The position numbers were made by a program, and so were the translations under genes. From Eubacteriales bacterium (GTDB lineage Bacteria; Bacillota; Clostridia; Oscillospirales; CAG-272), in NCBI GenBank assembly GCA_045532215.1, contig JAZSFM010000033.1:2128-66127 (forward strand): DNA of 64,000 nt, given 5' to 3'. Below, in pieces: positions 5,703 through 23,520 of this stretch (position 1 is the stretch's first letter; every line of letters starts with the position of its first letter). The notes below the pieces were generated by a model. The model was not told the origin of the DNA, ran no database searches, and saw nothing but the letters and a program-made list of their open reading frames with translations.

Positions 5703-5743
5703 CAAAAACGGGAATTGAACCCGTTCACAGTTCAATTCCCGTT
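5703..5743 (-). terminator. Rho-independent terminator of the phosphatase operon
   Basis: 14-bp perfect stem AACGGGAATTGAAC / GTTCAATTCCCGTT (5707-5720 / 5730-5743), followed by a T-run on the minus strand. Confidence 0.8.
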
Positions 5744-5763
5744 CAAAAAATTACATTTTTTGA

Positions 5764-8730
5764 TTATCTTTCAACGATAAAGGTTCCATAAGCAATGGTT
5801 TCGTTGTTTCCAAAATCGTATCCCTCGAATACGATGTAATCCTCGTAAACGTGCACGATATGTCCGATGTCGGAATACGCCAACGAAGGAACATGAACAA
5901 GCGTCGCATATTCTCCACCATACGTGTTGATCATACGGTCAGCGCGTGTTTCATCAAATATCCTTTCGAAGGTTTCATGTGAATGTCCGTTGAGGAAAAT
6001 AATGTTTGTGTATTGCTTGAAATAAGCATCAAAACGCTTATAATCCTCTGTTTTTTCCATCATCAATAGGGTTGTGTTGTTAAAGTGCCCTACCTTATTC
6101 TCCATTTCAGTGTGGAAGAAGAGGAACACGGTGCGATCCTTATATTGCTCCAAACGATCTCCCAACCAATCGAGCTGATAATCATCCATCAAACGCGAGG
6201 TTGTTTTACCGTAATCGTAATAGACCTGATGCAAGAAGATGATCACACTGCCGTCGGGCAGTTCCACAACGTAGTCGAGGTCATTATCTTCGGTGTAAAT
6301 CGCTTGAAAATCGGTTTGATACTCAACAATATTTCTTGCGTACGTATCATACCATTCTCGTGAAAATCCCGTATATTTCGCCTCATGGTTGCCACTAACC
6401 GTATAGATAGGCATGTTGGGATTCATGGCATAAATTTCTTTGATTGCCTCACCGTGCAAGTAATATTCACGCTCGGTATTGTTGGTCGCGATATCACCGT
6501 TGATGCCTATCAGAATAGCGCCCTTTTGCGAAAGAATTTCGCCGGCGTTAATCAATCTGTCAAAGGACTTCGTCTCGGGGCCGTAACGCGTACCCTGATG
6601 TGTATCGGCAAGCGCACCAAAGTTGTAAAGTTCCTCTTGCGTGAACAATTGTTCAGCAGGAATATCAAACGAATAGGTATAAGAGCCGCTTTCGCTTACC
6701 GCAATAAGACAGCTTGCTCCTTTGGGAATTGCCGTGTAAGAGTGAATGGAAACCTCGGCAAATACGCCTTTTTTCAAGGGCACGGAATGGAGATAGGAAT
6801 AGTTTGGCAAAATGCCGTCGGCATTGCCCCAATAGAGGTAATAGGTTTCACTGCTTTCGGCAATCAAAGAAACGCTGCCGCCGGCAAAGCCGGGGGTGTC
6901 ATAGGTGAAAACGTAATCGATGATGCCAACTCCGGGGTTATCCTGTCCGCAATAGATGCACACGTCATTTTCATAGGTATGCACCTGCGTTGCGGGAACA
7001 GTTTCGATATAACGCTCACCGCAATCGCAAACGTAACTGATTTTGCCATCGGTAATGCAGGTTTCCTCTTGAATAACAGCTTCGAAGGAAAGGGTATGAA
7101 AATGGAGCTCACCAACCTTGACAAAGTAAAAATCACGGTAGTGCTGACACTTATCACTTGCCGATGCGGTAGTTATGTCAATGATATTCTCGCCCGCAAG
7201 CAATTTGACACGGATGCCGTACATATACGTGCCTTCCGTAGTGTCTCTTACGGTCTTATAATCGGTGCCCGCAAACGCGTGCGAGGTTTCGATAACTTGC
7301 TCATACAGGGTGCCCGCGTTGACGGTGTATTTTGCACCGCGGTTGTCTCCGTCTTTTAGACGAAGATACAAAACCATTTCATAAACACCCGTTTCGGGAG
7401 CAGTAACGCGGTAGACGAGATGCTGCGAGCCGTTGCTTGCAACATACCAATGCTGAATGTCGGCAGTTGTTGTTACGTTCACTGCGGTGGAAAGCGTTGT
7501 GTCATAGTCTCCTGCCCACACGTGCACAGAATCCTTTGCTTGGAAAATGTCAAGAAGCTCGGTGGAGAAGAAATAAATATCATCGCTTCCGTTACCGTCG
7601 TTATCGTACGTTGAGGAAACAGAGGTCATTTGCAGCTCTTTTTGACCACACGTACTACAAATTCCGCCCGAGTAGGTGTGCTCACGGGTTGCGGGAATAA
7701 CAGAAGTCTTGGTCTTGCCGCACGCACAATGGATGTTTTTGTATCCAACCTCACCACAGGTAGGCGTCTTGAGGACATCCCCCTCCTCATAGCGGTGGGA
7801 GTGGAATGCATCCACCTTTACAAAATAAAAATCTCTGTAGTGTTGGTTTTTGGGAGATGCGGAAGATTGCTCAATTTTGATCAAATTCTCTCCCTCTACA
7901 AGGTTGAGACGAATACCGTACATATAGGTACCAAGGGTACTTTCATCGCGGACGGTCAGATATCCGTCTTTTTCCGCAAAGGAATGCGAAGTTTGGAACA
8001 CTTGCTCATAATCGGTGCCCGCATTGACGGTGTATTTTGTGCCGCGCTCCTTGCTGTCCTTCATACGCAGATGGATCGCCATCTCATAAACGCCTGCCTC
8101 GGGAACGTTCACGCGGTAAACAATATACTGACCCGGGTCTTCTACATACCAATGCTTAATGTTTACAAACGTAGCACTTCCGACACTGTCGGAGGAAAGC
8201 GCGTCGTCGTAATCACCTGCCCAAACGTGCGTGCCGTTTTGGAAAGTGGTGAAGAGCTGTGTGGAAAAGTGATAAACATCGTTTTTACCGTCTCCGTCGG
8301 CATCATACGCCGATGGAACAGGCGTAAGCCCGAGAGAAGGATCGACTCCCCTACACCATACGCAGGATGTACCAGCGTATTGGTGAACCCCCGTTGCGGG
8401 AATCTTCGTTACTTCAGTCTTCCCGCAGGTACAGTCAGCTGTTTTTTCACCCTCTTCTTGACATGTGGGCGATTTTGTAACTGTTGGGTTCTCAAAAATG
8501 TGCTCGTGCGGTGGTTGCTCGGGAGTGGTTACATCCGGAGTAGTAACGTCGGGAGTGGTTACATCGGGAGTAGTCACTTCAGGTGTCGTCTCTTTCGGAG
8601 TAGTCACCGTTGGGGTAGTTGCTACAGGTGTTGTTTCCTGGGGTGTTGTTTGATTGGCAGAAAAATCACCGAACGTACAGCTACAGAGCAAAAGTGCCAA
8701 AACAAAAGCTAAAATATATATACGTTTCAT
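5764..8730 (-). CDS. Secreted lipoprotein (988 aa): Thr/Pro linker, three Cys-rich modules, two beta-sandwich (CBM-like) domains, C-terminal calcineurin-like metallophosphoesterase
   Basis: Signal peptide and lipobox MKRIYILAFVLALLLCSC. Metallophosphoesterase motifs ADTH, NGD, GNHE, FFH, GHSH. Confidence 0.8.
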   Translation of the reverse strand: MKRIYILAFVLALLLCSCTFGDFSANQTTPQETTPVATTPTVTTPKETTPEVTTPDVTTPDVTTPDVTTPEQPPHEHIFENPTVTKSPTCQEEGEKTADCTCGKTEVTKIPATGVHQYAGTSCVWCRGVDPSLGLTPVPSAYDADGDGKNDVYHFSTQLFTTFQNGTHVWAGDYDDALSSDSVGSATFVNIKHWYVEDPGQYIVYRVNVPEAGVYEMAIHLRMKDSKERGTKYTVNAGTDYEQVFQTSHSFAEKDGYLTVRDESTLGTYMYGIRLNLVEGENLIKIEQSSASPKNQHYRDFYFVKVDAFHSHRYEEGDVLKTPTCGEVGYKNIHCACGKTKTSVIPATREHTYSGGICSTCGQKELQMTSVSSTYDNDGNGSDDIYFFSTELLDIFQAKDSVHVWAGDYDTTLSTAVNVTTTADIQHWYVASNGSQHLVYRVTAPETGVYEMVLYLRLKDGDNRGAKYTVNAGTLYEQVIETSHAFAGTDYKTVRDTTEGTYMYGIRVKLLAGENIIDITTASASDKCQHYRDFYFVKVGELHFHTLSFEAVIQEETCITDGKISYVCDCGERYIETVPATQVHTYENDVCIYCGQDNPGVGIIDYVFTYDTPGFAGGSVSLIAESSETYYLYWGNADGILPNYSYLHSVPLKKGVFAEVSIHSYTAIPKGASCLIAVSESGSYTYSFDIPAEQLFTQEELYNFGALADTHQGTRYGPETKSFDRLINAGEILSQKGAILIGINGDIATNNTEREYYLHGEAIKEIYAMNPNMPIYTVSGNHEAKYTGFSREWYDTYARNIVEYQTDFQAIYTEDNDLDYVVELPDGSVIIFLHQVYYDYGKTTSRLMDDYQLDWLGDRLEQYKDRTVFLFFHTEMENKVGHFNNTTLLMMEKTEDYKRFDAYFKQYTNIIFLNGHSHETFERIFDETRADRMINTYGGEYATLVHVPSLAYSDIGHIVHVYEDYIVFEGYDFGNNETIAYGTFIVER
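8512..8646. repeat. Coding 15-bp tandem repeats (TTPxV Thr/Pro linker)
   Basis: Repeated GGAGTGGTTACATC(C/G)GGAGTAGT units encode VTTPD/VTTPE. Confidence 0.8.
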
Positions 8731-8766
8731 TTTTCGCCTCCTTAAACTTGAAATGTTATCTCATTT

Positions 8767-10386
8767 TTAGGAAATGGAAACAAGTGCAGGATATTGAACC
8801 GAATTGGTTCCCTCAATTTCAACGCCGAACAAAGCGGCAATGGTTTTGGGGATTTGAATGTTTTCAATGGTTTTTCCATCAAACACATCGGCATCGGCTC
8901 CGTAAGCAAATACAGGAACATTGGTAGGCGTGTGGTCGCCTGTTGTGTAGTAAAAATCGCCATTTGCCGCAATTTGCAAACCACCCGTTTCGTGGTCGGC
9001 GGTGATGATGACCATCGTGTCGGGGTTGTAGAATGCATACTCCATAAACAGACCGATTGCCTGATTGAAGCGCACCATTGCCAAATATGCCTCGGCGGCA
9101 CGGTTGTTGTGGCAATGTTTATCGATATACGCTTCTTCGTACATCATAAAGAAGCCATCCTCATCAAGGGAAAGTGTATTCAAAGTTCTTGTAATCGCGG
9201 CACGGAGTGCCATTATCTCTGCCTCGGTGTAGAAATTATAATTGCAATCAATGATTGTTCCGTATTGTTCGACCAATGCTGCCTGTGTTGCCAAAATGGC
9301 ATCTCCATCACCGCGGGTGTTCGCGTGTGCCGAGAAGGACGCGGGGGTTGCACCCGTTTGCCCCTCGGTGGACATAACGGCGGTGGCTTTGCCCTTTTGG
9401 GCTGCAAGCTCGGTAAGAGACGGAACGTCTTTCAAATTGCCATCCTTACCAATATAGCCGTTAACGGTCTTGTACCCCGAAGAGAGCGCGGTTCCTGCGG
9501 CGGCACTGTCGGTCGTGCCGGAGAGCGAATTGGTTCTTGCCTCGCCAATGTAGGGGAACAGATAACCATAGAAGAAATCTTCACCGTCACTGTAATTGGC
9601 AATGTTCGAATCTTTATACGCCTCAAAGAGTTTTGTTTGGTTAGGACCCATACCGTCACCGATGAGCAAAATGAAGTTTTCTGCCTTTTTGACAATCGGT
9701 GTGCAAATTGTGGTGGTTTGCGGTACGTCTGTATCAAAAATGGAGTCGGGGATGTAGGTTTCCACAAAATAGTAAGCCGCCGCGGCAATGATGAAGTAGT
9801 CCCCTTCCATTGCAATGTGATCCTCGTTAGCAAGGAATGCAAATTCAAATCCTTTGGTTGTAGCATCAAGACTTTGCGAAATGGGACGAACCGTTTCTCC
9901 TACAACGATTTCGTGCGCATTTACTGCATCGGATGCTTCAATAGACATTACCGAAAGTGTGATACCCGTACGCTTTTCAATCTCGTCTGCGATATACTCT
10001 GCGGCACGAACCGTGTAAGCCGATGCGTGCTCATCATAAACAACGACGTAAGAGGAAAGCGGATCGCCGCACAAGGTGGGCTCTTGAGGAGTGGTTTCTT
10101 CGGGCGTTGTAACTTCGGGCGTTGTAACTTCGGGAGTTGTAACTTCGGGAGTTGTGACTTCGGGAGTTGTGACTTCGGGAGTCGTGACTTCGGAAGTTGT
10201 TTCTACCGAAGTGGTTTCTCCAGGAGTGGTTTCAGCAGGTGTAGTGGCTACAGGGGTTGACACAGTGGGCGTGGTTCCTTCTGTAGCAGGAGGAGTGTCT
10301 TCGGGTGTTGACTTACACGCAGTCACAACAGCTAAAACGAGTATCGCCAAGCAAAGCAGTACGACGATTTTGAGCATCTTTTTCAT
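8767..10386 (-). CDS. Secreted lipoprotein alkaline phosphatase (PhoA family, 539 aa)
   Basis: Signal peptide and lipobox LAVVTAC. Alkaline phosphatase motifs GDGMG, TDSAAAGTA (Ser nucleophile), EEAYIDKHCH, TADHETGG, GDHT. Confidence 0.85.
   Translation of the reverse strand: MKKMLKIVVLLCLAILVLAVVTACKSTPEDTPPATEGTTPTVSTPVATTPAETTPGETTSVETTSEVTTPEVTTPEVTTPEVTTPEVTTPEVTTPEETTPQEPTLCGDPLSSYVVVYDEHASAYTVRAAEYIADEIEKRTGITLSVMSIEASDAVNAHEIVVGETVRPISQSLDATTKGFEFAFLANEDHIAMEGDYFIIAAAAYYFVETYIPDSIFDTDVPQTTTICTPIVKKAENFILLIGDGMGPNQTKLFEAYKDSNIANYSDGEDFFYGYLFPYIGEARTNSLSGTTDSAAAGTALSSGYKTVNGYIGKDGNLKDVPSLTELAAQKGKATAVMSTEGQTGATPASFSAHANTRGDGDAILATQAALVEQYGTIIDCNYNFYTEAEIMALRAAITRTLNTLSLDEDGFFMMYEEAYIDKHCHNNRAAEAYLAMVRFNQAIGLFMEYAFYNPDTMVIITADHETGGLQIAANGDFYYTTGDHTPTNVPVFAYGADADVFDGKTIENIQIPKTIAALFGVEIEGTNSVQYPALVSIS
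10078..10308. repeat. Coding Thr/Pro linker with about 7 near-perfect 15-bp repeats (EVTTP)
   Basis: GTTGTAACTTCGGG(C/A) repeats are visible at about 10095-10195. Confidence 0.85.
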
Positions 10387-10424
10387 AATTTTTAACTCCT
10401 TTTACTTCATTTTGGGGAGCGTTT

Positions 10425-12857
10425 TTATTTTTCGATGATGTAGGTTGCGTATGCAAATGTTTCTCCTTGCACGAATTCGTAGCCCTCAAATACGATGCAA
10501 GTTTCATAGACGTGTACGATATAGCCCTCGGAACGGCCGTTGCCGCTGCCTACCAGAACACGGGGAGTGGAGCAAGCAGGAATGTGTACCATGGTTGCAT
10601 AAGTGCCATCTTTGTCGTCGATGTTCTTGTCATAATTGGTCTTGCCGGGCTTGGGTGTAACCAACTGCGCGTCAAATGCCCAGTGGGAGTGACCGCTGAA
10701 ATAAACTACGTTTGTGTACTTTGTAAAGTATTCGTCAAATTTCTGATATTCCACGGTAGAGCTGATCATGGGCAGACCGTACTCGTTTCCGTTTGTGCTT
10801 GCGTCGCCTACTTGCTCATCCATAAAGGTGTGGAAGAAGAAGAACACGGTTCTATCCTTATACTGTTCCAATCTTCCCTCCAACCACTCAAGCTGATAGT
10901 CGTCAACAAGACGAGAGGTCGAATAACTGTAATCGTAATACTTTTGGTGGAAATAAATCATAACACTTCCATCCGGAAGTTCAACTACATAGTCAAGTTC
11001 ATTACCATCAAAATAGAGATAGGTCAGGTCGCTATCGTATTCCACTACGCTGCGTGCATATTGCATATACCAATCGTAGGAGAAGCCCGTGTATTTTGCT
11101 TCGTGGTTACCCGTTGTGGTAAAGATGGGCATATCCGGAGCGAAGCCGTAGATCTCTTTGATGGCTTTTTCGTGCAAAATGTATTCGGATTCTTCGTTGT
11201 TGTAGGAGAAATCGCCGCAAATACCAATGGTGATAGCGCCCTTTTCGTAGAGCACCTTGGCAGCATTGACAAAATGGTTGTAAGGAATGGATGTTGAGCC
11301 ATAACGAACACCTTGGTGTGTATCCGAAAGTGCGCCAAAGACATAAAGTTCATCTTCGGTCAGCAGACGCGTTGCGGGGATTGTGTAGGAATATGTGATT
11401 GTTTTATCACCGCTAACGGCAATGAGACGGGTTGCTCCCTTGGGGATAGCGGTAAAGGACTGAATGGTAACTTCTGCTTCTATATTGGCTGCAAACTCGT
11501 CGGAATATAGCATGGTGTAATCCTTGAGTTGCCCGTTGGCATCTGCCCAATAAAAGGTGTAAACGTCATCGGTTTCGGGCAGGAAAGTCAATGTACCGCC
11601 TGCAAATCCGGGCTTGTCATAAAGGAAATCGTACTCGAGAATGCCTGCGGGAACGTAAACTCTGCCGCATCCTGTGCAAACTTCATTTACATAGGTGTGG
11701 TTATTGGTTGCGGGAAGAATTGTTGTTTTGGTCAAACCGCAAGAGCAGGTTGCAACCTTTTCACCGTCTGCACCGCAGGTCACTTCTTTGGTAACGGTTT
11801 CGTTTTCAAAACTGTGAAGATGGAACTCGCCAACCTTTACAAAGTAGAAATCACGGTAGTGTTGACACTTGGGGCTCTTGGAAGATTGCTCAATCTTGAT
11901 AATATTCTCACCTGCAACAAGGTTAACACGGATACCGTACATATAGGTGGTTAAGGTTTCAGGGTCGCGCATTTGTGAGCAGTTCATACCCGTGTAGCCG
12001 TAAGAGGTTTCAAATACTTGTTCGTTATCGGTGCCGGGATTGACAGTGTATTTTGTTCCGCGTTCTTGGTCATCCTTCATACGGAAATGAATAGCCATTT
12101 CATACGTACCCGTTTCGGGAACGGTTACTTTGTAAAGGATGAATTCAGCAGGGTTTTGGTTCTCGGTTACGTACCAGTGGTAGATTTTGGATGCCTCTGC
12201 TCTGCTGACACGAGACTCAGGCATATAATCTCCCGCCCAAACATGAACACCATTTTGGAATTCTTCGAGCAATTTGGTAGAGAAATTGTAAACCTCCTTC
12301 TTTCCGTCACCATCAGCGTCGTAAACGGAGGGAGAAGCATACAGCGGAATGGGGCTATAGTTGCACCACATGCAAGCACCGTTGAAATAGTTGTGCTCGC
12401 CCGTTGCGGGGATGATGGTCGTTTGCGTGTCGCCGCAAACAGAACAGGTAACAGATTCTATGCCCGCTTTGGCGCAGGTAGGTTTCTGCGTTACAACAGG
12501 TGACTGATACGCGTGTTCACCGGTAACGTCAAAGTTGGTTTCTATCGTCTCACCACAGGAACACACCTCTCTTTTTAAGCCGGGCTGTGTGCAGGTGGGC
12601 TCAATGAAAGTCTCTGTTCTGAAATTGTGTACATGAGGTTGTTCAGAGGGAGTTGTTTCTGCAGGAGTTGTGTCTGCAGGAGTTGTGTCTGCAGGGGTTG
12701 TGTCTGCAGGGGTTGTGTCTGTAGGGGCTGTTGTTTGGGGAGTTGTTTGTGGAGTTGTTTGTTGGGGACCTTGCGTGGTGTAATTTTCAAAATCCCCTTC
12801 AAGACAACTGCAAAGCAATAGCGCTAAAAGGGCAAGTAAAAGACATATTTTTTTCAT
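10425..12857 (-). CDS. Secreted lipoprotein (810 aa), paralog of 5764-8730: TP linker, Cys-rich modules, one CBM-like domain, metallophosphoesterase
   Basis: Signal peptide and lipobox LLALLALLLCSC. Motifs SDTH, CGD, GNHE, FFH, GHSH. Long collinear similarity to the 988-aa protein. Confidence 0.8.
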   Translation of the reverse strand: MKKICLLLALLALLLCSCLEGDFENYTTQGPQQTTPQTTPQTTAPTDTTPADTTPADTTPADTTPAETTPSEQPHVHNFRTETFIEPTCTQPGLKREVCSCGETIETNFDVTGEHAYQSPVVTQKPTCAKAGIESVTCSVCGDTQTTIIPATGEHNYFNGACMWCNYSPIPLYASPSVYDADGDGKKEVYNFSTKLLEEFQNGVHVWAGDYMPESRVSRAEASKIYHWYVTENQNPAEFILYKVTVPETGTYEMAIHFRMKDDQERGTKYTVNPGTDNEQVFETSYGYTGMNCSQMRDPETLTTYMYGIRVNLVAGENIIKIEQSSKSPKCQHYRDFYFVKVGEFHLHSFENETVTKEVTCGADGEKVATCSCGLTKTTILPATNNHTYVNEVCTGCGRVYVPAGILEYDFLYDKPGFAGGTLTFLPETDDVYTFYWADANGQLKDYTMLYSDEFAANIEAEVTIQSFTAIPKGATRLIAVSGDKTITYSYTIPATRLLTEDELYVFGALSDTHQGVRYGSTSIPYNHFVNAAKVLYEKGAITIGICGDFSYNNEESEYILHEKAIKEIYGFAPDMPIFTTTGNHEAKYTGFSYDWYMQYARSVVEYDSDLTYLYFDGNELDYVVELPDGSVMIYFHQKYYDYSYSTSRLVDDYQLEWLEGRLEQYKDRTVFFFFHTFMDEQVGDASTNGNEYGLPMISSTVEYQKFDEYFTKYTNVVYFSGHSHWAFDAQLVTPKPGKTNYDKNIDDKDGTYATMVHIPACSTPRVLVGSGNGRSEGYIVHVYETCIVFEGYEFVQGETFAYATYIIEK
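12636..12779. repeat. Coding 15-bp tandem repeats (TTPAD linker)
   Basis: GCAGG(A/G)GTTGTGTCT occurs 4 times around 12655-12720. Confidence 0.8.
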
Positions 12858-12978: not shown

Positions 12979-13007
12979 TTGAAATTCGCGCGCGAGCGTG
13001 ATATAAT
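12979..13007 (+). promoter_or_regulatory. Promoter of the GTPase-NYN gene
   Basis: TTGAAA (12979-12984), 17 nt, TATAAT (13002-13007). Confidence 0.6.
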
Positions 13008-13038
13008 AATATAAAAACTGACAGAAAGGAGACAGAAC

Positions 13039-15618
13039 GTGAAGAAAAAGCTTACCATTGGCATCCTCGCGCACGTTGATGCAGGGAAAACAACGCTCTC
13101 GGAAGCGATGCTTTATTTGTGTGGAAAAATTCGAACCATCGGCCGTGTTGACCATCGCAATACCTATCTTGACACCAACGCAGTGGAACGCGAGCGCGGC
13201 ATTACTGTTTTTTCAAAGCAAGCGCGATTTTCCACACCCGTGTGCGATTTTATTCTGCTCGACACCCCCGGACACGTGGATTTTTCAGCCGAAGCCGAGC
13301 GCACGCTGACTCTCCTTGATTACGCCATTTTGGTAGTGAGTGCAGCCGACGGTGTGCAAAATCACACCCGCACACTCTGGCAACTGTTGGAGTATTACCA
13401 CGTTCCTACCTTCCTTTTTGTCAACAAAACCGATATTTCCATAAAACTTGCCGAGGAAATGGAAGAGGAGCTTGCAAATGCACTCTCACCACGTTGCGTG
13501 GCCTTTTTTGAGGCGCAAAACGACAGCGAACGAGACGAAAAGTTGGCAATGGCGGATGAAGCGTTTTTGGAATCCTTTTCGGCAGGTGAAACCATCACCA
13601 ACGAGGAAATTGCCACAGCAGTCGTTGAGCGTCGGCTCTTCCCTACTCTGTTCGGCTCTGCTCTGCGCCTGACAGGTGTTGAGCACTTGTTGCACACTCT
13701 TGACCGTTTTACCCTCTCTCCCCTTTACGAAAGCACCGAATTTGGCGCACGTGTATTCAAAATTGCACGCGACGGCAACATACGCCTGACCTATCTCAAA
13801 GTGACGGGCGGCATTCTCCGCGCGCGTGACGAGATCACCTATTTTAGCGCGGACGGTCAAAAAATGCGCGAAAAAGTCAATCAGTTGCGTCTGTATTCGG
13901 GTGAAAAATTCGAGCAGGTCGACTCTGCCGAGGTTGGTGAAATCTGCGCTGTGGTCGGTCTTTCTGCTACATTTATCGGACAGGGGCTTGGATTTGAAAG
14001 TGATGCAGGTCGCCCCATACTCGAGCCCGTGCTTTCCTACCGTATCGCGCTCCCCAAGGACTGCGATCCGATGCTTTACTTCCCAAAGCTCAAAGAACTC
14101 GAAGAAGAAGAGCCCTCTTTGCACCTGTTGTGGAACAGTGAACTCGGGCAAATTGAAGTACGACTGATGGGTCAGGTGCAAATTGAACTCTTACGTCGTC
14201 TTATCTTAGACCGTTTTGGCATTGATTGTGAACTCGATGCAGGCAGAATTCTTTACAAAGAGAAACCCGCGGCACGTTCGCTCGGCATCGGACACTTTGA
14301 GCCGCTCCGTCACTATGCCGAGGTACAGCTCCTCATCGAGCCGCGCCCTGCGGGCTCGGGGCTCTCCTTTGACGTGCATCTACCCCCAAATGCACTTGAC
14401 CTAAATTGGCAACGCTTAATTCTCTTTAACCTGTATGAAAAAGTTCACCGCGGAACGCTCATTGGCGCGATGCTGACCGATGCAAAAATCACGCTTGTTG
14501 CGGCACGTGCGCATCTAAAACACACCGAGGGTGGCGATTTTCGCGAGGCAACCTTGCGCGCGGTTCGTCAAGGATTGATGCAATCAGGATGTGTTTTGCT
14601 CGAACCCTATTACAAATTCCGCATTGATCTCCCATCCTCTTTTGTGGGGCGTGCAATGTCGGATTTGCAAATGCGCGCGGCAACTTTTGAAGTTGAAAGC
14701 GCAACAGATGAAAGAACCGTAATCGCAGGTCGCGCACCCGTTGCAACGCTTCACGATTATCCACGAGAGCTCATTTCCTACACGCGTGGCGAGGGGCATA
14801 TTTCTTGCACGTCTGACGGTTACGAACCCTGCCACAATCAAGAAGAAGTGGTTACTGTCGCTCACTATGACCCCGTTGCAGACCCCGAAAACACTCCACA
14901 CTCTGTTTTTTGCGAGCACGGAGCAGGTGTTGTTGTTCCTTGGAATGAGGTGGAAGCGTGGAAGCACATTGAGGCGGACGTTTCGCTTGCCGAAAGTGCT
15001 GCCAACATTCTACCCGCTCCGCGCAAGCTTGCCAATAAATATCAACTCAGCGATGACGAAATCGAAGCTTTGATGTTGCGCTCCTTTGGCCCCATTCGAC
15101 GCCGTCAATATAGCGAGAAACGCATCAATGCTGCCAAAGAAGAGAAGAAACGCCCCCACAAAAAACCACAACTGCAAAGGCATATGGTCATTGTGGATGG
15201 CTACAACGTCATTTGGGCGTGGGACTCTTTGCGCGAGGTGGCAGAGTTCAGCTTGGAAAAAGCTCGCGAGACACTCATGGATATTTTGAGCAACTACGTC
15301 GCCTTTACCAAAACCGAATTGACGCTTGTGTTTGATGCCTATCTCGTTCCCGACGGTGCGGGCTCAGAAATCTCTCACGATGGCTACCGTATCGTCTATA
15401 CCAAAGAAAATCAAACGGCCGATGCCTACATTGAAAAAATGATGCATGAGCTCGGCCCCAACTACAACATTCGCATGGTTTCGGGTGACAAGCTCTTGCA
15501 GTTCTCTGCCGTTCACTCGGGTATCTTGCGCGTCACCGCCGCCGAATTTGAAGCCGAGGTCACTGCTGTTGGCGAAGAAATCACCGACTTTATTAAAAAA
15601 CTTGCTCAAAAGCAATAA
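13039..15618 (+). CDS. TetM/EF-G-like translational GTPase fused to a C-terminal YacP/Rae1-type NYN (PIN-like) nuclease domain (859 aa)
   Basis: GTG start with AAGGAG upstream. G motifs AHVDAGKTT, DTPGH, NKTD. The C-terminal VIVDGYNVIWAW...VFDAYLV...YTKENQTADAYIEK resembles B. subtilis Rae1/YacP. Confidence 0.8.
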   Translation: MKKKLTIGILAHVDAGKTTLSEAMLYLCGKIRTIGRVDHRNTYLDTNAVERERGITVFSKQARFSTPVCDFILLDTPGHVDFSAEAERTLTLLDYAILVVSAADGVQNHTRTLWQLLEYYHVPTFLFVNKTDISIKLAEEMEEELANALSPRCVAFFEAQNDSERDEKLAMADEAFLESFSAGETITNEEIATAVVERRLFPTLFGSALRLTGVEHLLHTLDRFTLSPLYESTEFGARVFKIARDGNIRLTYLKVTGGILRARDEITYFSADGQKMREKVNQLRLYSGEKFEQVDSAEVGEICAVVGLSATFIGQGLGFESDAGRPILEPVLSYRIALPKDCDPMLYFPKLKELEEEEPSLHLLWNSELGQIEVRLMGQVQIELLRRLILDRFGIDCELDAGRILYKEKPAARSLGIGHFEPLRHYAEVQLLIEPRPAGSGLSFDVHLPPNALDLNWQRLILFNLYEKVHRGTLIGAMLTDAKITLVAARAHLKHTEGGDFREATLRAVRQGLMQSGCVLLEPYYKFRIDLPSSFVGRAMSDLQMRAATFEVESATDERTVIAGRAPVATLHDYPRELISYTRGEGHISCTSDGYEPCHNQEEVVTVAHYDPVADPENTPHSVFCEHGAGVVVPWNEVEAWKHIEADVSLAESAANILPAPRKLANKYQLSDDEIEALMLRSFGPIRRRQYSEKRINAAKEEKKRPHKKPQLQRHMVIVDGYNVIWAWDSLREVAEFSLEKARETLMDILSNYVAFTKTELTLVFDAYLVPDGAGSEISHDGYRIVYTKENQTADAYIEKMMHELGPNYNIRMVSGDKLLQFSAVHSGILRVTAAEFEAEVTAVGEEITDFIKKLAQKQ

Positions 15619-15624
15619 AAAAGC

Positions 15625-15668
15625 TACCCCGTGTGTGCAAAAATGCACAGACGGGGTATTGTTTTTTT
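15625..15668. terminator. Bidirectional Rho-independent terminator between convergent genes
   Basis: Hairpin TACCCCGTGTGTGCA-AAAA-TGCACAGACGGGGTA with one mismatch, an A-run before and a T-run after. Confidence 0.8.
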
Positions 15669-18600
15669 AGTCTTTGGTTTTGATAATTTTAACGGGCTTA
15701 ATCATCTTAATCTTGAGCATAGGAATGATAAGCGAGATGACTGTGAGGACACCAACAAGAATGCAGTTATCTCTTACAATACCCTTTTGGAATGTCAGGA
15801 ATTTCAAATCAAGCATAACATGACCGGGCGCGATGCGACGCAGAGATTCAACCAAAACATCGTTTGCAAGGTCGATAAAGTAGTAGTATCCCACCGCTGC
15901 AAGCACACAGGTAAGAATAGCAATGAGGAACATCTGCAAACCAAATACCGTTGCAACGGTTCCGTTTTGCGTACCGAGTGCTTTCAAAATACCAATTTCG
16001 TGCATCTTATCTCTAATAACTCTTGTGGAGAAGTTGATAAGGATGAAAATAACACCTGCGCAAAGAACAATCGCAACGAGCTCGAAGATCGGAATGAATA
16101 CGTCAACCGCTTTGGTCATTGTGTGGATACCTTCCAAAATAAAGCTTTGGGGTTGGTAATTCATATCTGCTGCACTATCCAAAACACCGCCAAGACCTTG
16201 GTTGCCGTCAAAATAAAGGGCACTTTCACGAATGTTGTCCTTCAGGAAAAGTTGGTAAACATTATCGCCTGCATAAAAAGTTGCTCCCGTATAGGAGTGG
16301 AGTGCGATAATGGTTACTTCTTTTTCAAACATCACAGATTCGTGCGCTTCATCATCGTAATCATATTGGGAAAGCGTTACGGTATGCGGAACAAATTGAT
16401 CAAAATTGAGAGATGTGTACTCTGTTCCAAATACCTCGTTGTATCTTTCGTAGTTCATAACAACGCAATCATCCGGCACATAGTCACCCATTGCTGCTTG
16501 GGTACCGATACACTCTTTGTTTTCATTATAGAATGCATAGAACGCATAGGTTCTAATTGCAATTGCTGCAAACTCGGTGATCTTTGCCCCCTCGGGAATT
16601 TCAATATAGTCAGAAATCCAACCGGTTGTACCACTGGCACCCGTAGTTGTGTTCGCACCGGTAAGAATATCGATACCAATTCCTTTTGTGGGATCCAAAT
16701 CCTTATTTGATGTAAAGTTCATCAACTCTTTGGAGATCGGCTCATTGTCATCAAAGCGAAGAAGTGCGCATTCTCTCGTAGAAACTTCGTCAGTAAGACC
16801 GTAAGCACGGTCTACATCATCGTTAAACGCAACGCGAATGTATTTTGCACCTTCGGGGATTTCAGGCAATGCCGTTGTGTACATAAATGAACCCTTGAGG
16901 AGAGATTCGTAATCGGCAGTATTTTGGCGATAGTTATACGAAAGAACAATGGGGTTGTTTTCCGCCACCAAGTCCACCTTGTTGTTAAAACTCAAGCGGT
17001 AGTGAGGTGTTTGCAGGGTTGCTAACGAGGTTTTGTACAAGTCCTCTTCAAAATTGGGATTGGTGGTAAAGCAGTAGCCAAGCGTGCCGTAAATTTCGCT
17101 AGTCAGTTTTTGAAACTCTTCCATTTCGTAAAGATCCGAAATGTTGAAACTCTTGACATCTTTCAACGAATCAAGGAAATCTTGATAGCGTTCTTTGTAA
17201 CCAGTGTAAATAATACCGTTTACATATCCCTGCTCTAATGTACTGCTGGGATTGAGAAATTTGCCCAAAATATCCTCATAGGTCTTATGTTTGTATTTCG
17301 TGTTGGTTGCCAATACCGCATCGGCAACATAGTCGGTAATGAGAACACCATACGGTTTGAATTCATCTTCATCCAGCTTTACAACGTAGGTAACTTCACC
17401 AAACTTTTGTTGCAAGAATTCTTCATCTACGATCAATGTACCAAGTGTTTCGCTAATGTAGGGACTATTTGTGAAATAGCTACCACCGAGAGCCCAACGG
17501 TGGCTTCGCCACCTGATAGGAAGAGTGTAACTCAATACAGGATAAATTTTTCCTTTATAGCCGGAATCATAGAAGAATTGAACATCTCCCTCATCGTTTT
17601 CAAGGCGGTAACGTCTGCCATACTGTTGTGTCATCTCATCGTTAAACGCCTTATTTAGTAGCAGCGTGTCTTGCTTAGCTTGTTGCATCTCTTCGGCAAT
17701 GATTGCACTCGAATCAAATCCGATAATGGTTTGCGCCAAGGCCATAATCACCATAACCACCGCTACCATAAAGCTCGAAACGCCAATCATCACCGCGCGG
17801 CTCTTGAGGAATTTGCGGCTCAGGCGCATCTTTTTGGAAAAACGGAGCTTTTCTTTTTCGATTTCTACCCTTTCACCCTCCGGAATTCTGACACGAGCAG
17901 AAACGAATTTATCTCTCTGCTTAACAAAACGACTGCGGGGACGAGAGTTGATAAAGGCAATATCATTGTCGCTGAGTTCTCTTCCCTCAGGATAGAGAAT
18001 GATATCGTCAATAGCGGTAACGCAGTTGCCAACCTTAGGGTTGCGGGTGTAGTCGCCGCAAACTTGTCCGTCCTCCAGTTCAATGATACGGTCCGCATAG
18101 TTTTTCGCATCGCGAATATTATGCGAAACAATCAGGATCAGACGCTCGCGTGCAAGATTTTGCAGCAAAGCAATAATTGAGGTTGCCGTGTTGGGGTCAA
18201 GGTTACCTGTGGGCTCATCGGCAAGAATAACCTTGGGATCCTTTACAATCGCACGCGCAATTGCAACACGTTGACGTTCACCGCCACTCAATTCAGAGGG
18301 GTAACGTCTTTCGTATCCTGCAAGACCTACACGCGCAAGCGCTTCGCTGATGCGACCTTGGTCTCTCATGCGGCGCAGGTGCAGGGAGGTTGCAATATTT
18401 TCGTATACCGTCAATTCTTCGATCAGGTGGTAATCCTGGAAGATAAAGCCGATGTGCGTATTACGGTAGTTGCACAGTTGACGCTCACTCAGGCGAGAAA
18501 TATCATTGCCGTTCACCTCAATGGACCCATATGTGATTTTATCAAGACCCCCTATGAGGTTGAGCAAAGTGGATTTACCACTACCGCTTTTACCCAATAC

Positions 18601-18708
18601 AAAAACGAGACCGGCATCCGGCAAATCAAGACTAACATTGGTCAGTGCATAGCCCTTTTTGCCGTGTTTAGAACGGTAAACCTTGCACAGGGATGTGATT
18701 TTAATCAT
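15667..18708 (-). CDS. MacB-type ABC transporter, fused ATPase plus FtsX-like permease with a large extracytoplasmic domain (1013 aa)
   Basis: [38 protein letters not shown]-terminal transmembrane helices after a long soluble insert. Confidence 0.85.
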
Positions 18709-18975: not shown

Positions 18976-21600
18976 TTAGTCTTTTGTTTTAATGATTTTG
19001 ACGGGTTTAATAACCTTGACCTTGATCATGGATGGGATCAGCGCCACGAGTGCAAGCACAGTAACGAGAATACAATTTTCGATTGCAATTTCCGCTTGGA
19101 AAGTTAGAAAATCAAGATCCAGCACGATATGCGTGGGAGCCAAGCGTTTGAGCGACTCAATCAGCACATCGTTGGCAATATCGATGAAAAAGTAGTAACC
19201 TACCACCGAAAGAAGGCAAGTCAAAAACGCAATCAACAGCACCTGCAAGCCAAAAACCGTACCGACGGTTCCGTTTTGTGCGCCAAGTGCTTTGAGAATA
19301 CCGATTTCGTGCATCTTATCCTTAATCATACGCGAGGAGAAATTGAAGAGGATAAATATGACACCCACACACAGGACAATGGCAATAAGCTCGAAAATCG
19401 GAATGAATACGTCCACAGCTCGAGTCATTGTGTGAATTCCCTCAACCACCGACGTGTATTGGGTATAACCCAAATCGTTTGCCACCTCCATAGCGGCACT
19501 GATGCCATCGGCACCGTTGAGATACACGCCAACCGCAAACAAGCTTTGTTGCGCAAATTCTTGGTAGGTTTGTTTGCTAACCACCATGGTAGCATTCCTA
19601 TCGGTATTCGAATTGATTGACCAAAAACCTTTTATGGTAACTTCTTTTGACCACAGCGGATTTTGGTTTTGAAGATCATAATACCGGTAATGCGTGAGTG
19701 TGATCTTATGAGGTACAAATTCCTGATAATTGCTCTCGTCGTAGTTTGTACCGAAAATATCGTTGTATTTTTGGTAGGACATCAAAATTTCATCATCGTT
19801 CAGCTCCACACCAAGCCAGTCATCCGTTCTGGCCTGCGGTCGATACAATGTGATGTAATTGAGGCCACTGAAATTCAATTTGTGGTGCCACACGATCTCA
19901 CAGGGGTAATTTTTGCCAAAGGCGATGGAAAAATCGGGATTGAGCGAGTAACCGAATCCGAGGAAAGAATAAATCTCATTGTTGAAATTGATCATATCGG
20001 GATCTTCTGCAAGATCGGAAACATTTTTAACATCTCCGCGCAAAACAGAATCGCACAAATTCTTGTATCGGTCACGATATCCTGTTTCAACAATACCGTT
20101 GATGTATCCGCGGTATCCGTAGAGGTCGCCCCAAGTATAGTAGCCCAGCAATTCCTCATAGGATTTATTTAAGTATGCTTCGTTGTGCAGACGAATAGCA
20201 TCTGCCACGTAGTCGGTAATTACAATACCGCCCGGATGGAATTCATCCAACTTAGCCAAATACTTCACCTCGCCGAGTTTTTCCTCAAAAAATGCTTCGT
20301 CAACTACAATGGTGCCGAGCAATGCCCTTACATAAACCGAATTTGCCGTTAAAAAAGAACTGCTCCAGCCAGCCGAAAATTCACTTGAGGAATCCTGTAT
20401 CGGCATAAAGAAATTGTAAATCTTGTAGATTTCGCCTGTGTATCCGGCGTCTGTCATTTGCTGTATCTCTCGGTCGGAAATTTCGACAAAAAAGTCCTGC
20501 CCTTCCTCACCAAATGCTGCTTTTTCTACAGGGGTAATTTGTTTGAGCATCATCATTGAGGTAGCGTTTGCCTTTTTGATTTCATTGGAAATGACAGCAT
20601 CGGAATCGAATGTAATAACGGTTTGCGCCAAGGAAAGAATAATCATAATAACCGCCACCATAAAGCTGTAAAGTGCAATGGCAACCGTTTTGCGCTTGAG
20701 GAAAAAGCGACTCAGGCGCATCTTTTTAAGAAAACTCAGTTTTTCTTTGATAATTTCTACAAACTTTGCCTCATTGGTACACTCGGGGGTGTGCGCGTAT
20801 TGGGTTCGGCTCTTGACAAGCCGACGCGAGGTGTTTGCGTTAATGAGCGCAATGTCTTCGTCGTTCAATTCTCTGCCCTCGGGATAGAGCAACAGATTGC
20901 CGGACACCTTGATACCGCCAATAGTTCCCGCAACACGTGTATAGTCGCCTGTTACACAACCGTTTGCAAGCTCGATAATGCGGTCGGCATAAGCGTATGC
21001 ATCGCGGCGATTGTGAGAGACGATCAGAATGAGGTGTTCACGCGCAAGACTGCGGAGCAGCTTGATAATAGAGGTGGCCGTTTGCGCATCCAAATTTCCC
21101 GTTGGCTCGTCTGCAAGGATAATACGCGGTTGTTTGACAATAGCGCGGGCAATGGCAACACGTTGACGCTCACCGCCACTGAGTTCGGAGGGATAGCGTC
21201 CTTCATAGCCCATCAATCCCACTCTTTTCAATGCAATGCTCACAAGATCGCTATCTTCCATACGGCGCAAATCCAACGAAAGAGCGATATTGTCGTAAAC
21301 CGTTAATTCTTCGATGAGATGATAATCTTGAAAGATAAATCCAATGTGTGAGTTGCGATAGTTGCACATCTGCCTCTCGCAAATGTGTGAAATATCATTG
21401 CCATCCACCTCGATTTTACCGCTTGTTACCCTATCCAACCCACCAATAAGATTGAGCAAAGTAGATTTTCCACTTCCGCTCTTTCCAAGCACAAACACAA
21501 GGCCCGTATCGGGCAATGTCAAGGTGACATCTTTGAGCGCTTGGCACTTTTTGCGTTTTTTGGAACGGTAGACCTTTGTCAGGGCTATAATCTTGATCAT
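18976..21600 (-). CDS. MacB-type ABC transporter paralog (ATPase plus FtsX-like permease, about 874 aa)
   Basis: Same motifs as 15667-18708. The start was moved to MIKIIALTKVY (ATG 21600-21598, GGAGAG SD), matching the paralog's N-terminus [11 protein letters not shown]. Confidence 0.85.
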   Translation of the reverse strand: MIKIIALTKVYRSKKRKKCQALKDVTLTLPDTGLVFVLGKSGSGKSTLLNLIGGLDRVTSGKIEVDGNDISHICERQMCNYRNSHIGFIFQDYHLIEELTVYDNIALSLDLRRMEDSDLVSIALKRVGLMGYEGRYPSELSGGERQRVAIARAIVKQPRIILADEPTGNLDAQTATSIIKLLRSLAREHLILIVSHNRRDAYAYADRIIELANGCVTGDYTRVAGTIGGIKVSGNLLLYPEGRELNDEDIALINANTSRRLVKSRTQYAHTPECTNEAKFVEIIKEKLSFLKKMRLSRFFLKRKTVAIALYSFMVAVIMIILSLAQTVITFDSDAVISNEIKKANATSMMMLKQITPVEKAAFGEEGQDFFVEISDREIQQMTDAGYTGEIYKIYNFFMPIQDSSSEFSAGWSSSFLTANSVYVRALLGTIVVDEAFFEEKLGEVKYLAKLDEFHPGGIVITDYVADAIRLHNEAYLNKSYEELLGYYTWGDLYGYRGYINGIVETGYRDRYKNLCDSVLRGDVKNVSDLAEDPDMINFNNEIYSFLGFGYSLNPDFSIAFGKNYPCEIVWHHKLNFSGLNYITLYRPQARTDDWLGVELNDDEILMSYQKYNDIFGTNYDESNYQEFVPHKITLTHYRYYDLQNQNPLWSKEVTIKGFWSINSNTDRNATMVVSKQTYQEFAQQSLFAVGVYLNGADGISAAMEVANDLGYTQYTSVVEGIHTMTRAVDVFIPIFELIAIVLCVGVIFILFNFSSRMIKDKMHEIGILKALGAQNGTVGTVFGLQVLLIAFLTCLLSVVGYYFFIDIANDVLIESLKRLAPTHIVLDLDFLTFQAEIAIENCILVTVLALVALIPSMIKVKVIKPVKIIKTKD

Positions 21601-21640
21601 AACGTCTCTCCGATTTCGTTTTGAAACATAATTTATACAC

Positions 21641-21669
21641 ATTATAACACAGTTTTTGCATTTTGTAAA
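21641..21669 (-). promoter_or_regulatory. Promoter of the 874-aa MacB-like gene
   Basis: On the minus strand: TTTACA (21669-21664), 17 nt, TATAAT (21646-21641). Same layout as the paralog's promoter. Confidence 0.55.
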
Positions 21670-21732: not shown

Positions 21733-23520
21733 TTATTCGTCTGACTCGTTCGAAAAAATAAGCTTATACAAATTGGAATAGTAATCCCAATTCTCTGCTT
21801 TTTGGATACTTTCCCATTCTTCGGGAGTGCCATCAAAGATAATTTCACGCAATTCCCAGCCGTAAGCGAGTGCTTCTCTGCAAATATATTGCAAGTTGTT
21901 GGGGAGAGTAACTCGCAACAGAGTGGTGGAAGCAAAAAACAAATGCTCGCAAAGCCCTATGGTATCGCTGCGCAAAACAACTTCTTCCATTCCCTTATCG
22001 AAGTCAACCGCCCATTTGCCAACGTAGGAAACACCGTTTTCCACTTGGAGCAAAGCATTACAATTTTCAAAAGCATCGCCGCCAATATGCGTAACACTTT
22101 CGGGAATCGTCAATTCACTCAAATTTTTGCAATCGGAAAAAGCACCGCTGCCAATGAAGGTAACACTTTCGGGAATATCGATGCGATACAAATTTGCGCA
22201 ACCTGAAAATACACCTGCTGCTATCTTTTCGAGTCCTTGCGAGAGGTGGACATTTTCCAGCTTCCAGCACTGTGAAAATGCAAAACTATCAATAGAGGTA
22301 ACGCTATCGGGAATATCAATGCTTTTCAGGGTTGAACATTGCGAAAACGCATTTCCCCCGATGCTTTTCAGCCCTTGCGGCAAGGTGACGTTTACAAGCT
22401 TTGTGCAATAGCCAAAGCAGAAAAAAGGAATCTCTTCTATTCCTACGGGCAAAACAATACTTGCCAAACTACTGCAGTTAAAAAATGCATATTCGCCTAT
22501 GCTTGTTACACCGGAGGGAATGGTGATGCTTTCGAGTCTTGTGCAAGAAGAGAAAGCAGATTCGCCAATACTTTTCAATCCGTCGGGAAGAATGATACTT
22601 TCAAGGTTGGAACAATAATTAAACACCTTGGGTTCCAATACGGTAATTCCCTTGGGTATTATAACGCTTTTCAAGTTGTAGCAAGAATCAAACGCGCTCT
22701 CACCGATTCGAGTAACACTTTGCGGAATGTGGATGCTTTTGAGTTCGTCACAGTTGTAAAACGCTCGGGGGCCGATTTCCACCAACGTATCGGGAAGTAT
22801 GATTTCTTCAAGATTTTTACACCACCGAAAAGCGCGCTCACTGATAACCGTAACAGTTCGGGGAAGTGTGATGCTTTTCAGTGTTTCACAATCCTCAAAC
22901 GCCCCCACCATAATAGACGTAACGTGATAACCGCAGAAGTTTTCGGGAACGATAACATTCTCGTCGGTGCAGTTACCGATGCCTGCTACCGAGAAGGTTT
23001 TGCCATCGGGATTGATGGCATAAGCAAGCCCTACCGAACCCGTTGCGGGGATGAGTTCCTCATCAAGCTTTGCACCGCAATGCTCACAGAACTGACATTT
23101 CAGTCCGGGTTCTCTTGCATCGGGATCCTCGGGTGTGGGAATTTTGATGGTTGGTTCTCTTTCAACCACCCAAGCACCTGCAAAATGCGGCAAAAGAGCA
23201 ACTACTCTCATCTCACTCTCTCCACATGCACAAAGACGTGTCTCCTCTCCATTTTCGGAGCAGGTTGCATCTTTGGTTATTTGCCATTCACCAAAAATAT
23301 GATTGTGCAAAGGGAGCGTGAGCTCGGGAGGGGTGGGATCATCGGGTTGCAACCAAAGCACTGCACCAATGATAACAGCTACCATAAGACAAAAGCAAGC
23401 CGCAAGCGTTCCCCATTTGACCCAATTTTGCGCCACGTGTCGCCTTTTTTGAGGTGCTGCATCTAAAATCCATTGCGGATCAATGTCTCGCAACGCATCA
23501 AAAATATTCTTGTCGTTCAT
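21733..23520 (-). CDS. Single-pass membrane protein, probable anti-sigma factor, with a Cys-rich module and a BspA-type leucine-rich-repeat ectodomain (595 aa)
   Basis: ATGA overlap with the sigma gene. Transmembrane helix WGTLAACFCLMVAVIIGAVLWL. About 14 repeats of IPxSVTxIGxxAFxxCxxLxSI. Confidence 0.7.
   Translation of the reverse strand: MNDKNIFDALRDIDPQWILDAAPQKRRHVAQNWVKWGTLAACFCLMVAVIIGAVLWLQPDDPTPPELTLPLHNHIFGEWQITKDATCSENGEETRLCACGESEMRVVALLPHFAGAWVVEREPTIKIPTPEDPDAREPGLKCQFCEHCGAKLDEELIPATGSVGLAYAINPDGKTFSVAGIGNCTDENVIVPENFCGYHVTSIMVGAFEDCETLKSITLPRTVTVISERAFRWCKNLEEIILPDTLVEIGPRAFYNCDELKSIHIPQSVTRIGESAFDSCYNLKSVIIPKGITVLEPKVFNYCSNLESIILPDGLKSIGESAFSSCTRLESITIPSGVTSIGEYAFFNCSSLASIVLPVGIEEIPFFCFGYCTKLVNVTLPQGLKSIGGNAFSQCSTLKSIDIPDSVTSIDSFAFSQCWKLENVHLSQGLEKIAAGVFSGCANLYRIDIPESVTFIGSGAFSDCKNLSELTIPESVTHIGGDAFENCNALLQVENGVSYVGKWAVDFDKGMEEVVLRSDTIGLCEHLFFASTTLLRVTLPNNLQYICREALAYGWELREIIFDGTPEEWESIQKAENWDYYSNLYKLIFSNESDE

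Follow-up and report, generated by a model that had tools for sequence, protein, structure and literature searches.

The locus described here joins a translational GTPase and a ribonuclease in a single protein. The window, that is, the whole stretch of 64,000 nucleotides that was analysed, derives from a Eubacteriales bacterium of the order Oscillospirales (GenBank assembly GCA_045532215.1, contig JAZSFM010000033.1, positions 2,128 to 66,127 of the forward strand). It contains a gene for a protein of 859 amino acids (aa) which a first-pass annotation, made from the sequence without database searches, had taken for a TetM/EF-G-like GTPase fused to a Rae1/YacP-type NYN nuclease domain. The protein most likely cuts mRNA on stalled ribosomes. 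It is a further member of a known, widespread and experimentally untouched family, and will not surprise a specialist who knows the surveys, in which Tet proteins with a YacP-like NYN domain were reported from ten Clostridiales species (Atkinson 2015, BMC Genomics, PMC4342817) and 'TetM-NYN_YacP fusion proteins' from some Clostridia, with a remark on adjacent helix-turn-helix genes (Matelska et al. 2017, NAR, PMC5499597). The first-pass statement that no characterised example was known holds insofar as full-text literature searches found no experimental work on the fusion, but the architecture itself had already been described in 2015 and 2017.

A Pfam scan identified the translational GTPase domains and NYN_YacP in one chain. 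The last 165 or so residues, which had been said to resemble YacP/Rae1, matched the NYN_YacP family (PF05991) over aa 717-856 (E = 1.2e-37, 129.9 bits against a gathering score of 24.6, model positions 1-142 of 166) and the crystal structures of Bacillus subtilis YacP/Rae1 (5mq8/5mq9, E = 2.4e-19), in both cases far beyond chance. The hallmarks of NYN_YacP proteins are a D-G-Y-N motif, four active-site aspartates and two C-terminal helices that bear conserved basic residues (Matelska et al. 2017, PMC5499597). In an alignment of 93 diverse family members, 38-92% identical to the window protein, the nuclease residues D720, Y722, N723, D766, D795 and D817 were invariant. The D-G-Y-N motif was kept, and D720, N723, D766, D795 and D817 aligned with D7, N10, D53, D81 and D104 of Rae1, so that all four catalytic aspartates were accounted for. 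Rae1 needs D7 and D81 for its activity, and its catalytic mutant in the literature is D7N/D81N (PMC10351889). Judged from these residues, the NYN domain is catalytically intact. In an AlphaFold2 model built on the 93 diverse family members (mean predicted local distance difference test score, pLDDT, 85; predicted template modelling score, pTM, 0.62), the domain was modelled with a pLDDT of 72-89 over aa 714-858 and ended in a single long helix (834-858). The fused domain ends early: a median of 43 residues follow the last catalytic aspartate in fused NYN domains and 66 in the Rae1 of Clostridioides difficile, and the basic C-terminal tail of stand-alone Rae1 (about 25 aa) is absent from the window protein and from most fused members.

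The N-terminal part, aa 1-645, was modelled as a confident five-domain body similar to EF-G. Pfam GTP_EFTU matched aa 4-224 (E = 6.9e-48). For domain II the match to EF-G_D2 (aa 236-314, 1.5e-05) was below the gathering score, GTP_EFTU_D2 also matched, and the model was all-beta with a pLDDT above 90 and was covered by Foldseek matches to EF-G; the fold of domain III was likewise backed by the model and by Foldseek matches to EF-G. In a search of the PDB the body matched TetO (E = 1.5e-68) and TetM, and in sequence it is closest to TetO/TetM, with EF-G next, while the Foldseek matches were to ribosome-bound EF-G (E = 2e-51) and to TetM (E = 9e-44). The GTPase motifs and the five-domain fold place the body in the translational GTPase superfamily, in the EF-G/EF2 branch. 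Invariant in the 93 sequences were D14, G16, K17 and T18 of the P-loop (G1), T56 of switch I, D75-T-P-G-H79 of G3 and switch II, with the catalytic His, and K130 and D132 of G4, by which the GTP-hydrolysis apparatus, too, is judged intact. The invariance of the GTPase and nuclease sites indicates that both enzymatic activities are kept by purifying selection. The motifs quoted in the first-pass annotation were all present, in the GTPase (AHVDAGKTT, 11-19; DTPGH, 75-79; NKTD, 129-132), in the linker (EKRINAAKEEKKRPHKKPQLQ, 693-713) and in the nuclease domain (HMVIVDGYNVIWAW, 715-728; LVFDAYLV, 763-770; IVYTKENQTADAYIEKMM, 785-802).

Of all domains of the family, domain IV is the best conserved. 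Its tip, the part which in EF-G and TetM reaches the decoding centre, is formed by two family-specific loops, GHFEPLRHYAEV (418-429) and KHTEGGDFREAT (494-505), with conservation of 0.94 and 0.87, respectively, the P-loop having 0.93. The second loop takes the place of loop III of TetM, which displaces tetracycline. Since the tip loops are conserved like the P-loop, it can be argued that insertion into the decoding centre would be essential to the function of the protein.

The first-pass annotation had described a full translational GTPase ending at about residue 640, followed by a basic linker. The GTPase was recovered as such, but the structured body reaches about residue 645, through a conserved C-terminal extension with the motif YDP..D.EN...SVFC.HGAG..VPW.EV, in which Y610, F624 and G628 were invariant and D615, S622, C625, V633, W635 and H643 at least 90% conserved. 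The extension differs from the C-terminal helix of TetM, and a Pfam scan of it at E values up to 1 matched no family. The true linker, aa 646-713, is not merely basic. A variable part is followed by a conserved amphipathic helix (aa 669-690), in which a GPI(R/K)R motif lies, and by a variable part rich in Lys and Arg (aa 691-713), with conservation of 0.18, 0.48 and 0.18 in that order, and the AlphaFold2 model had a pLDDT below 50 at 653-672 and 683-707, with a helix (672-683) between. The length of this tether is 56-137 aa across the family (median 69) and 68 aa in the window protein. The long flexible tether suggests that the nuclease may act at a distance from the GTPase site.

That the fusion is genuine, which the first-pass annotation had left to be checked, follows from the relatives of the gene. 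A genome scan with one genome per species confirmed at least 579 relatives, and the results on loci given here refer to the best 80. GTPase and nuclease were coded by one open reading frame (ORF) in all 80, and shortened copies were all at contig ends. Each of the closest 120 homologues (68-92% identical) carried PF05991, and 119 were full length (about 860 aa), the one other entry being N-terminally shortened. An exact look-up of the window protein itself gave no record. When the last 258 residues were searched, without a profile, against 1.84 billion cluster representatives, 212 clusters (50% identity) matched at E <= 1e-30; 73 of the best 150 clusters were at least 800 aa long and matched about residues 600-860, so the region of the junction between GTPase and nuclease is conserved too. 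The hosts in the scan belonged to Oscillospiraceae, Ruminococcaceae, Acutalibacteraceae, Lachnospiraceae and Faecalispora, the nearest named relatives being labelled Clostridia, Oscillospiraceae or Ruminococcaceae bacterium, and a separate search found the fusion also in Monoglobus pectinilyticus and Agathobacter rectalis. Among the major Clostridia of the human gut and the rumen the family is abundant, A. rectalis, Oscillospiraceae and Ruminococcaceae included. Base composition gave no sign of recent transfer of the fusion gene (GC content 0.49 in the 2.5-kb bin covering most of it, window range 0.33-0.53). The window gene is a chromosomal, vertically inherited member of a Clostridia-wide family of fusions between Tet-like translational GTPases and Rae1.

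The flanks of the gene are mostly unconserved, the 393 neighbouring ORFs of the 80 loci falling into 317 clusters. In 18 of the 80 loci, however, a ylmH-type gene (about 248 aa) came directly 3' of the fusion gene, in the same orientation. Where coordinates were listed (11 loci), it overlapped the fusion gene by 11-17 nt in seven and was separated from it by 5-66 nt in four; the genes beyond the pair vary between loci. The predicted product has YlmH_RBD and S4 domains and matched the Sll1252/YlmH family. YlmH is a factor of ribosome-associated quality control (RQC) which binds peptidyl-tRNA-50S RQC complexes (PMC11317155), and no mention of the linkage between fusion gene and ylmH was found in the literature searched. 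The linkage suggests that the fusion protein may be tied to ribosome rescue. The stand-alone rae1 gene of C. difficile lies in the order cysS-mrnC-thyX-rlmB-rae1-sigH. The rlmB loci of Monoglobus and Vescimonas, on chromosome fragments in the plasmid collection PLSDB, had no rae1 after rlmB, and the fusion was the sole NYN_YacP match in the Monoglobus records searched, the genome being only partly present in that collection. These loci hint that the fusion replaces stand-alone Rae1.

In the reading that we consider moderately probable, the GTPase brings the tethered nuclease to ribosomes that have stalled or collided, where mRNA cleavage equivalent to that of Rae1 would lead to rescue. The GTPase module would take over ribosome recruitment for a Rae1-type nuclease. 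In its GTP form the protein would dock in the factor-binding or A site of a non-elongating ribosome, stalled or collided, and the conserved tip of domain IV would probe the decoding centre; the tethered NYN domain could, while the factor is docked, cut the mRNA at the ribosome edge or at the disome interface, and GTP hydrolysis at the sarcin-ricin loop would free the factor. The cut mRNA would pass the ribosomes to trans-translation by transfer-messenger RNA (tmRNA) and possibly, as the ylmH operons suggest, to RQC. The protein would then be these lineages' version of the B. subtilis Rae1 pathway, with built-in GTP-dependent targeting and turnover. The disordered and variable tether, together with the missing tail of the NYN domain, fits a GTPase replacing Rae1's own ribosome-binding tail. 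Rae1 itself acts on collided ribosomes, generates tmRNA substrates and feeds trans-translation (PMC13622287). The first-pass annotation had proposed a GTP-gated device for delivery of the nuclease, and its core idea, that the GTPase targets or gates the nuclease, stays the best reading; shutoff triggered by phage, which it had also offered, is unsupported.

Several points weigh against such a function. What the protein would cut (mRNA or rRNA), which state of the ribosome it would recognise and what GTP would do are matters of inference. The premise of the first-pass annotation that Rae1 cuts mRNA in the A site is out of date, since the group that first put it forward has itself revised it, so that an EF-G-like dock combined with a cut in the A site is not an obvious geometry; the tether would need to reach around the 30S subunit, or the protein to bind the trailing ribosome of a disome, or another cleavage position would be needed. 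The AlphaFold2 model, with its pTM of 0.62, gives the NYN domain no reliable position relative to the body. No ylmH-like gene is present in the 64-kb window, and the ylmH linkage, found in one subclade only, could be a single ancestral arrangement. The evidence for replacement of Rae1, from two organisms with partly searchable genomes, is weak.

A more specific proposal, possible rather than probable and advanced here tentatively, is that the protein acts, in one polypeptide, as a GTP-gated no-go decay factor and that Oscillospirales, Lachnospirales and Monoglobales have no other Rae1. The GTPase module would proof-read the state of the A site or GTPase centre on a ribosome that has stalled or collided, license the mRNA cut only after that and hand the products to 50S-based RQC and tmRNA. 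If true, it would be a one-protein bacterial counterpart of the logic of Hbs1/Dom34 plus endonuclease, and would provide a natural, trappable Rae1-ribosome complex. EF-G/TetM-type factors can be locked on the 70S ribosome with non-hydrolysable GTP analogues or catalytic-His mutants, and a Rae1 tied to such a GTPase may allow capture of the nuclease-ribosome complex, a timely handle on ribosome recognition. Rae1 has newly become central to ribosome-collision rescue in Gram-positive bacteria (PMC12407103; PMC13622287), and a structure of ribosome-bound Rae1 is lacking because binding is transient, its mode of ribosome recognition being unknown (PMC13622287). The function of the fusion also bears on translation quality control in gut Clostridia that are hard to study.

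The fusion protein could instead be a ribosome-targeted RNase that cuts rRNA or tRNA rather than mRNA, its GTPase docking on ribosomes that are immature, damaged or in hibernation and its NYN domain processing or inactivating rRNA, for example at the 3' end of 16S rRNA or in the decoding region, in the service of quality control of biogenesis or of ribosome turnover. The logic would be similar to that of Nob1, the PIN nuclease stimulated by a GTPase in eukaryotic 40S maturation. The ylmH linkage, which points to rescue of translating ribosomes and not to assembly, makes this unlikely, and the 80 loci contained no rRNA-processing neighbours save weak SpoU/rlmB-like matches, several kb off, in three loci. 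In its favour, NYN_YacP was first proposed for rRNA/tRNA maturation, stand-alone rae1 adjoins mrnC and rlmB, which are rRNA-processing genes, a nuclease tethered to a ribosome-bound GTPase can reach rRNA, and none of the present results discriminates the substrate.

It is improbable to much the same degree that the main task of the protein is to split or recycle ribosomes, its EF-G-like GTPase dissociating stalled 70S ribosomes and giving the peptidyl-tRNA-50S complexes for alanine tailing by RqcH/YlmH, with the nuclease as an accessory or collision-sensing module like the SMR domain of B. subtilis MutS2. EF-G-family GTPases can split ribosomes, YlmH works on split 50S complexes, and its linkage in 18 loci, with reading frames overlapping in 7 of the 11 with coordinates, would suit such a role. 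MutS2 has the same layout, an NTPase with a nuclease-fold domain that is not used for cleavage (PMC13622287). B. subtilis MutS2 has, however, lost key nuclease residues, whereas the four catalytic aspartates were invariant in the 93 sequences of the fusion family, which speaks for cleavage as an essential function. Splitting does not preclude cleavage, and this alternative overlaps with the reading of a GTPase-docked mRNA nuclease.

TetM and TetO supply the best sequence matches of the body, the best NCBIfam model is tet_protect, and a role in tetracycline resistance has been suggested (Atkinson 2015, PMC4342817). The protein would then be a ribosomal protection protein of the TetM/TetO type with an acquired RNase domain, a new mechanism of resistance, and RefSeq calls the homologue of A. 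rectalis (NZ_CP143948.1, WP_306784676.1, L081:5093-7894) a 'TetM/TetW/TetO/TetS family tetracycline resistance ribosomal protection protein'. The scores of the window protein were far from the cutoffs, with 388.6 bits against 775 for tet_protect (NF012153), 260.6 against 1100 for the TetM/W/O/S model (NF033148) and 301.6 against 900 for Otr(A). The residues Y506, Y507, S508 and P509 of TetM loop III, which we take from the TetM-70S structure to displace tetracycline, correspond to A491, H492, L493 and K494, and the loop in their place is itself highly conserved (family consensus RAHxKHTEGGDFR). The C-terminal extension bears no relation to the C-terminus of TetM, and the gene is chromosomal, with flanks that differ by lineage and surroundings that are those of neither a transposon nor a plasmid. 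That it codes for a genuine tetracycline protection protein was rejected on the NCBIfam scores, on loop III and on the chromosomal, non-mobile context, and we regard a resistance function as very unlikely. By the scores and loop of the window member, the RefSeq label of the A. rectalis member is probably an over-annotation, and Tet labels on members of the fusion family can inflate resistance-gene counts in surveys of microbiomes and gut metagenomes.

A plasmid or mobile context was rejected: the matches in PLSDB were plasmid-labelled chromosome fragments typed as non-mobilizable. The records (NZ_CP143948.1, NZ_OY725736/39/40/45.1, NZ_AP023416.1 and NZ_CP149721.1; loci L081-L087 and L091) hold core genes, rpmG-secE-nusG-rplK-rplA-rpoB, rlmB, cysS, tuf and secA, and are evidently chromosome fragments or secondary chromosomes, a caveat for plasmid statistics.

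The chance that the protein is a toxin or an anti-phage abortive-infection effector, shutting off translation by triggered ribosome-dependent RNA cleavage, is as slight as that of a resistance function. Ribosome-dependent mRNA nucleases such as RelE are toxins, the A. rectalis copy adjoins a BrnT/CopG toxin-antitoxin pair, and an action of Rae1 or SmrB on phage mRNAs has been speculated upon (PMC13622287). Against this stand the absence of any family matched at E <= 0.001 in PADLOC-DB v2, the lack of a conserved immunity or partner gene among the 393 ORFs (317 clusters), and the broad, stable distribution with neighbours of housekeeping type. A defence role was rejected, as the fusion protein had no PADLOC match. 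Two virome contigs labelled 'Bacteriophage sp.' (MT835563.1 and MT835514.1) carry the fusion. On MT835563.1 (L089, marked UNVERIFIED) the full-length fusion (5397-8024) lies among bacterial housekeeping genes, its neighbours being NAD(P)H-hydrate dehydratase, a peptidoglycan-binding protein and a citrate transporter; no phage hallmark gene was found among the genes encoded there, and the contig most likely stems from bacterial DNA that contaminated the virome. The phage link was rejected on this one of the two phage-labelled contigs. The phage-triggered shutoff of the first-pass annotation thus finds no PADLOC match, no conserved partner and no mobile context, and the 'phage' record examined is bacterial.

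An assembly or sequencing artefact joining two adjacent genes is refuted by the continuous ORF in 80 independent species-level loci and 119 full-length homologues, and by the conservation of the junction itself, with its C-terminal extension and linker helix.

The features of the fusion gene are collected in Table 1. The ORF and the good Shine-Dalgarno sequence given in the first-pass annotation were confirmed. The predicted promoter is intergenic and near-consensus, with 11 of 12 consensus matches and the TG of the extended -10 element present. The 5' neighbour, a gene for a calcineurin-like phosphoesterase of 810 aa, is divergent, so the fusion gene would be driven by its own promoter, and because the 3' neighbour, coding for an ABC/FtsX protein of 1013 aa, is convergent, the gene looks monocistronic. 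An Rfam scan of the window matched three tRNAs only, and no leader or riboswitch for the fusion gene.

Table 1 Features of the fusion gene and its predicted product in the window, and ylmH-type genes next to fusion genes in other loci (L numbers)
Feature	Residues	Coordinates	Strand	Remarks
Sigma-70-type promoter (predicted)		12979..13007	+	TTGAAA, 17 nt, extended -10 TGaTATAAT
Shine-Dalgarno sequence AAAGGAG		13025..13031	+	7 nt 5' of GTG, read from sequence
Fusion ORF	859 aa plus stop codon	13039..15618	+	GTG start, uninterrupted
G domain	1-224	13039..13710	+	Reduced G' insert, aa ~133-200; AlphaFold2 pLDDT ~80-96
Domain II beta-barrel	236-318	13744..13992	+	Pfam EF-G_D2, GTP_EFTU_D2; AlphaFold2; Foldseek
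Domain III	329-399	14023..14235	+	Pfam EFG_III, 1.3e-4, below gathering score
Domain IV	405-516	14251..14586	+	Pfam EFG_IV, 8.8e-10
Domain V	519-600	14593..14838	+	Pfam EFG_C, aa 519-601, E = 4.7e-20
Conserved C-terminal extension	601-645	14839..14973	+	Helix, beta-hairpin, helix; pLDDT ~90
Flexible tether	646-713	14974..15177	+	Variable, conserved helix and variable segments
Rae1/YacP NYN endoribonuclease domain	714-859	15178..15615	+	Pfam NYN_YacP, PDB alignment
ylmH-type gene, representative		L015:8785-9534		Directly after fusion gene
Other ylmH loci		L009, L011, L013, L014, L016, L023, L025, L026, L029, L030, L032, L034, L040, L041, L043, L044, L045

Upstream of the fusion gene, on the minus strand (5764-12857), lies a run of genes for three large proteins predicted to be phosphoesterases, two of them calcineurin-like (Metallophos; 988 and 810 aa) and one an alkaline phosphatase (539 aa). 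In a close relative whose fusion gene is 90% identical (GCA_053312975.1), the upstream genes are the same, with the phosphoesterase run conserved 5' of the fusion gene, and other genes take the ABC/FtsX position. An unusual protein of 753 aa, with a TMEM164-family membrane domain and an ABC ATPase (2850-5111, minus strand), is present in the close relative too. Downstream, also on the minus strand, tandem genes (15667-18708 and 18976-21642) code for proteins of 1013 and 888 aa, both MacB-like, with an N-terminal ABC ATPase and a C-terminal FtsX-type permease; the 1013-aa protein had a PADLOC match to mad3, probably via its generic ATPase domain. They are followed (21733-23520, minus strand) by a gene for a BspA-type leucine-rich-repeat surface protein (LRR_5, E = 2e-103), of a type typical of gut and rumen Clostridia, which agrees with the inferred habitat. 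Two stretches of low GC content (0.33-0.36, about 0.45 elsewhere), at 42501-45000 and 55001-60000, may be recently acquired islands, and a tRNA-Pro(GGG) gene (54754-54829) lies just ahead of the second.

Among known systems, the family of TetM-like-NYN_YacP fusions is identical to the window protein, a member of it, in architecture and in its range among Clostridia. Compared with the surveys of 2015 and 2017, the family is here traced in 80 or more genomes at the species level and in 212 clusters (50% identity), and the C-terminal extension, the details of the tether, the conservation of the domain IV tip, the early end of the fused NYN domain and the ylmH linkage go beyond the earlier descriptions.

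Rae1/YacP of B. subtilis (PDB 5MQ8/5MQ9) has in common with the fusion the NYN_YacP fold, the GYN motif, the equivalents of D7, D53, D81 and D104 and, presumably, dependence on the ribosome. It is, however, a separate protein, about 170 aa long, whose C-terminal tail is basic, whereas the fused domain ends a GTPase of 859 aa and lacks the tail, and the context of the fusion gene, monocistronic between phosphoesterase and ABC/FtsX genes, differs from the rlmB-rae1-sigH order of the C. difficile locus. TetM and TetO (PDB 3J9Y, 4V6V) are the best sequence matches for aa 4-598 (E about 1e-65 to 1e-68) and have the same five-domain body, in which the G' subdomain is reduced. The window protein differs from them in scoring below every NCBIfam Tet cutoff, in lacking the Tyr-Tyr-Ser-Pro motif, in its other C-terminal extension, in its non-mobile gene and in the added nuclease. 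EF-G has the same fold and intact GTPase motifs including the catalytic His, with about 24% identity to the window protein, which is without the full G' subdomain and adds the extension, the tether and the nuclease; the domain IV tip differs, KHTEGGDFR standing where EF-G has a His-containing loop.

With SmrB of Escherichia coli and MutS2/RqcU of B. subtilis there is functional analogy only, in that a nuclease fold is brought to stalled or collided ribosomes. MutS2, as the fusion, couples an NTPase to a nuclease-fold domain, but the folds are unrelated (SMR and NYN; ABC/MutS ATPase and translational GTPase), and SmrB and MutS2 recognise the disome interface directly and not the factor-binding site. 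Eukaryotic no-go decay is a further functional analogy: the translational GTPase complex Dom34-Hbs1 delivers an A-site probe to stalled ribosomes, and the endonuclease Cue2/NONU-1 cuts mRNA at collided ribosomes. These are separate proteins with other folds, whereas the Clostridia fusion would hold both activities in one.

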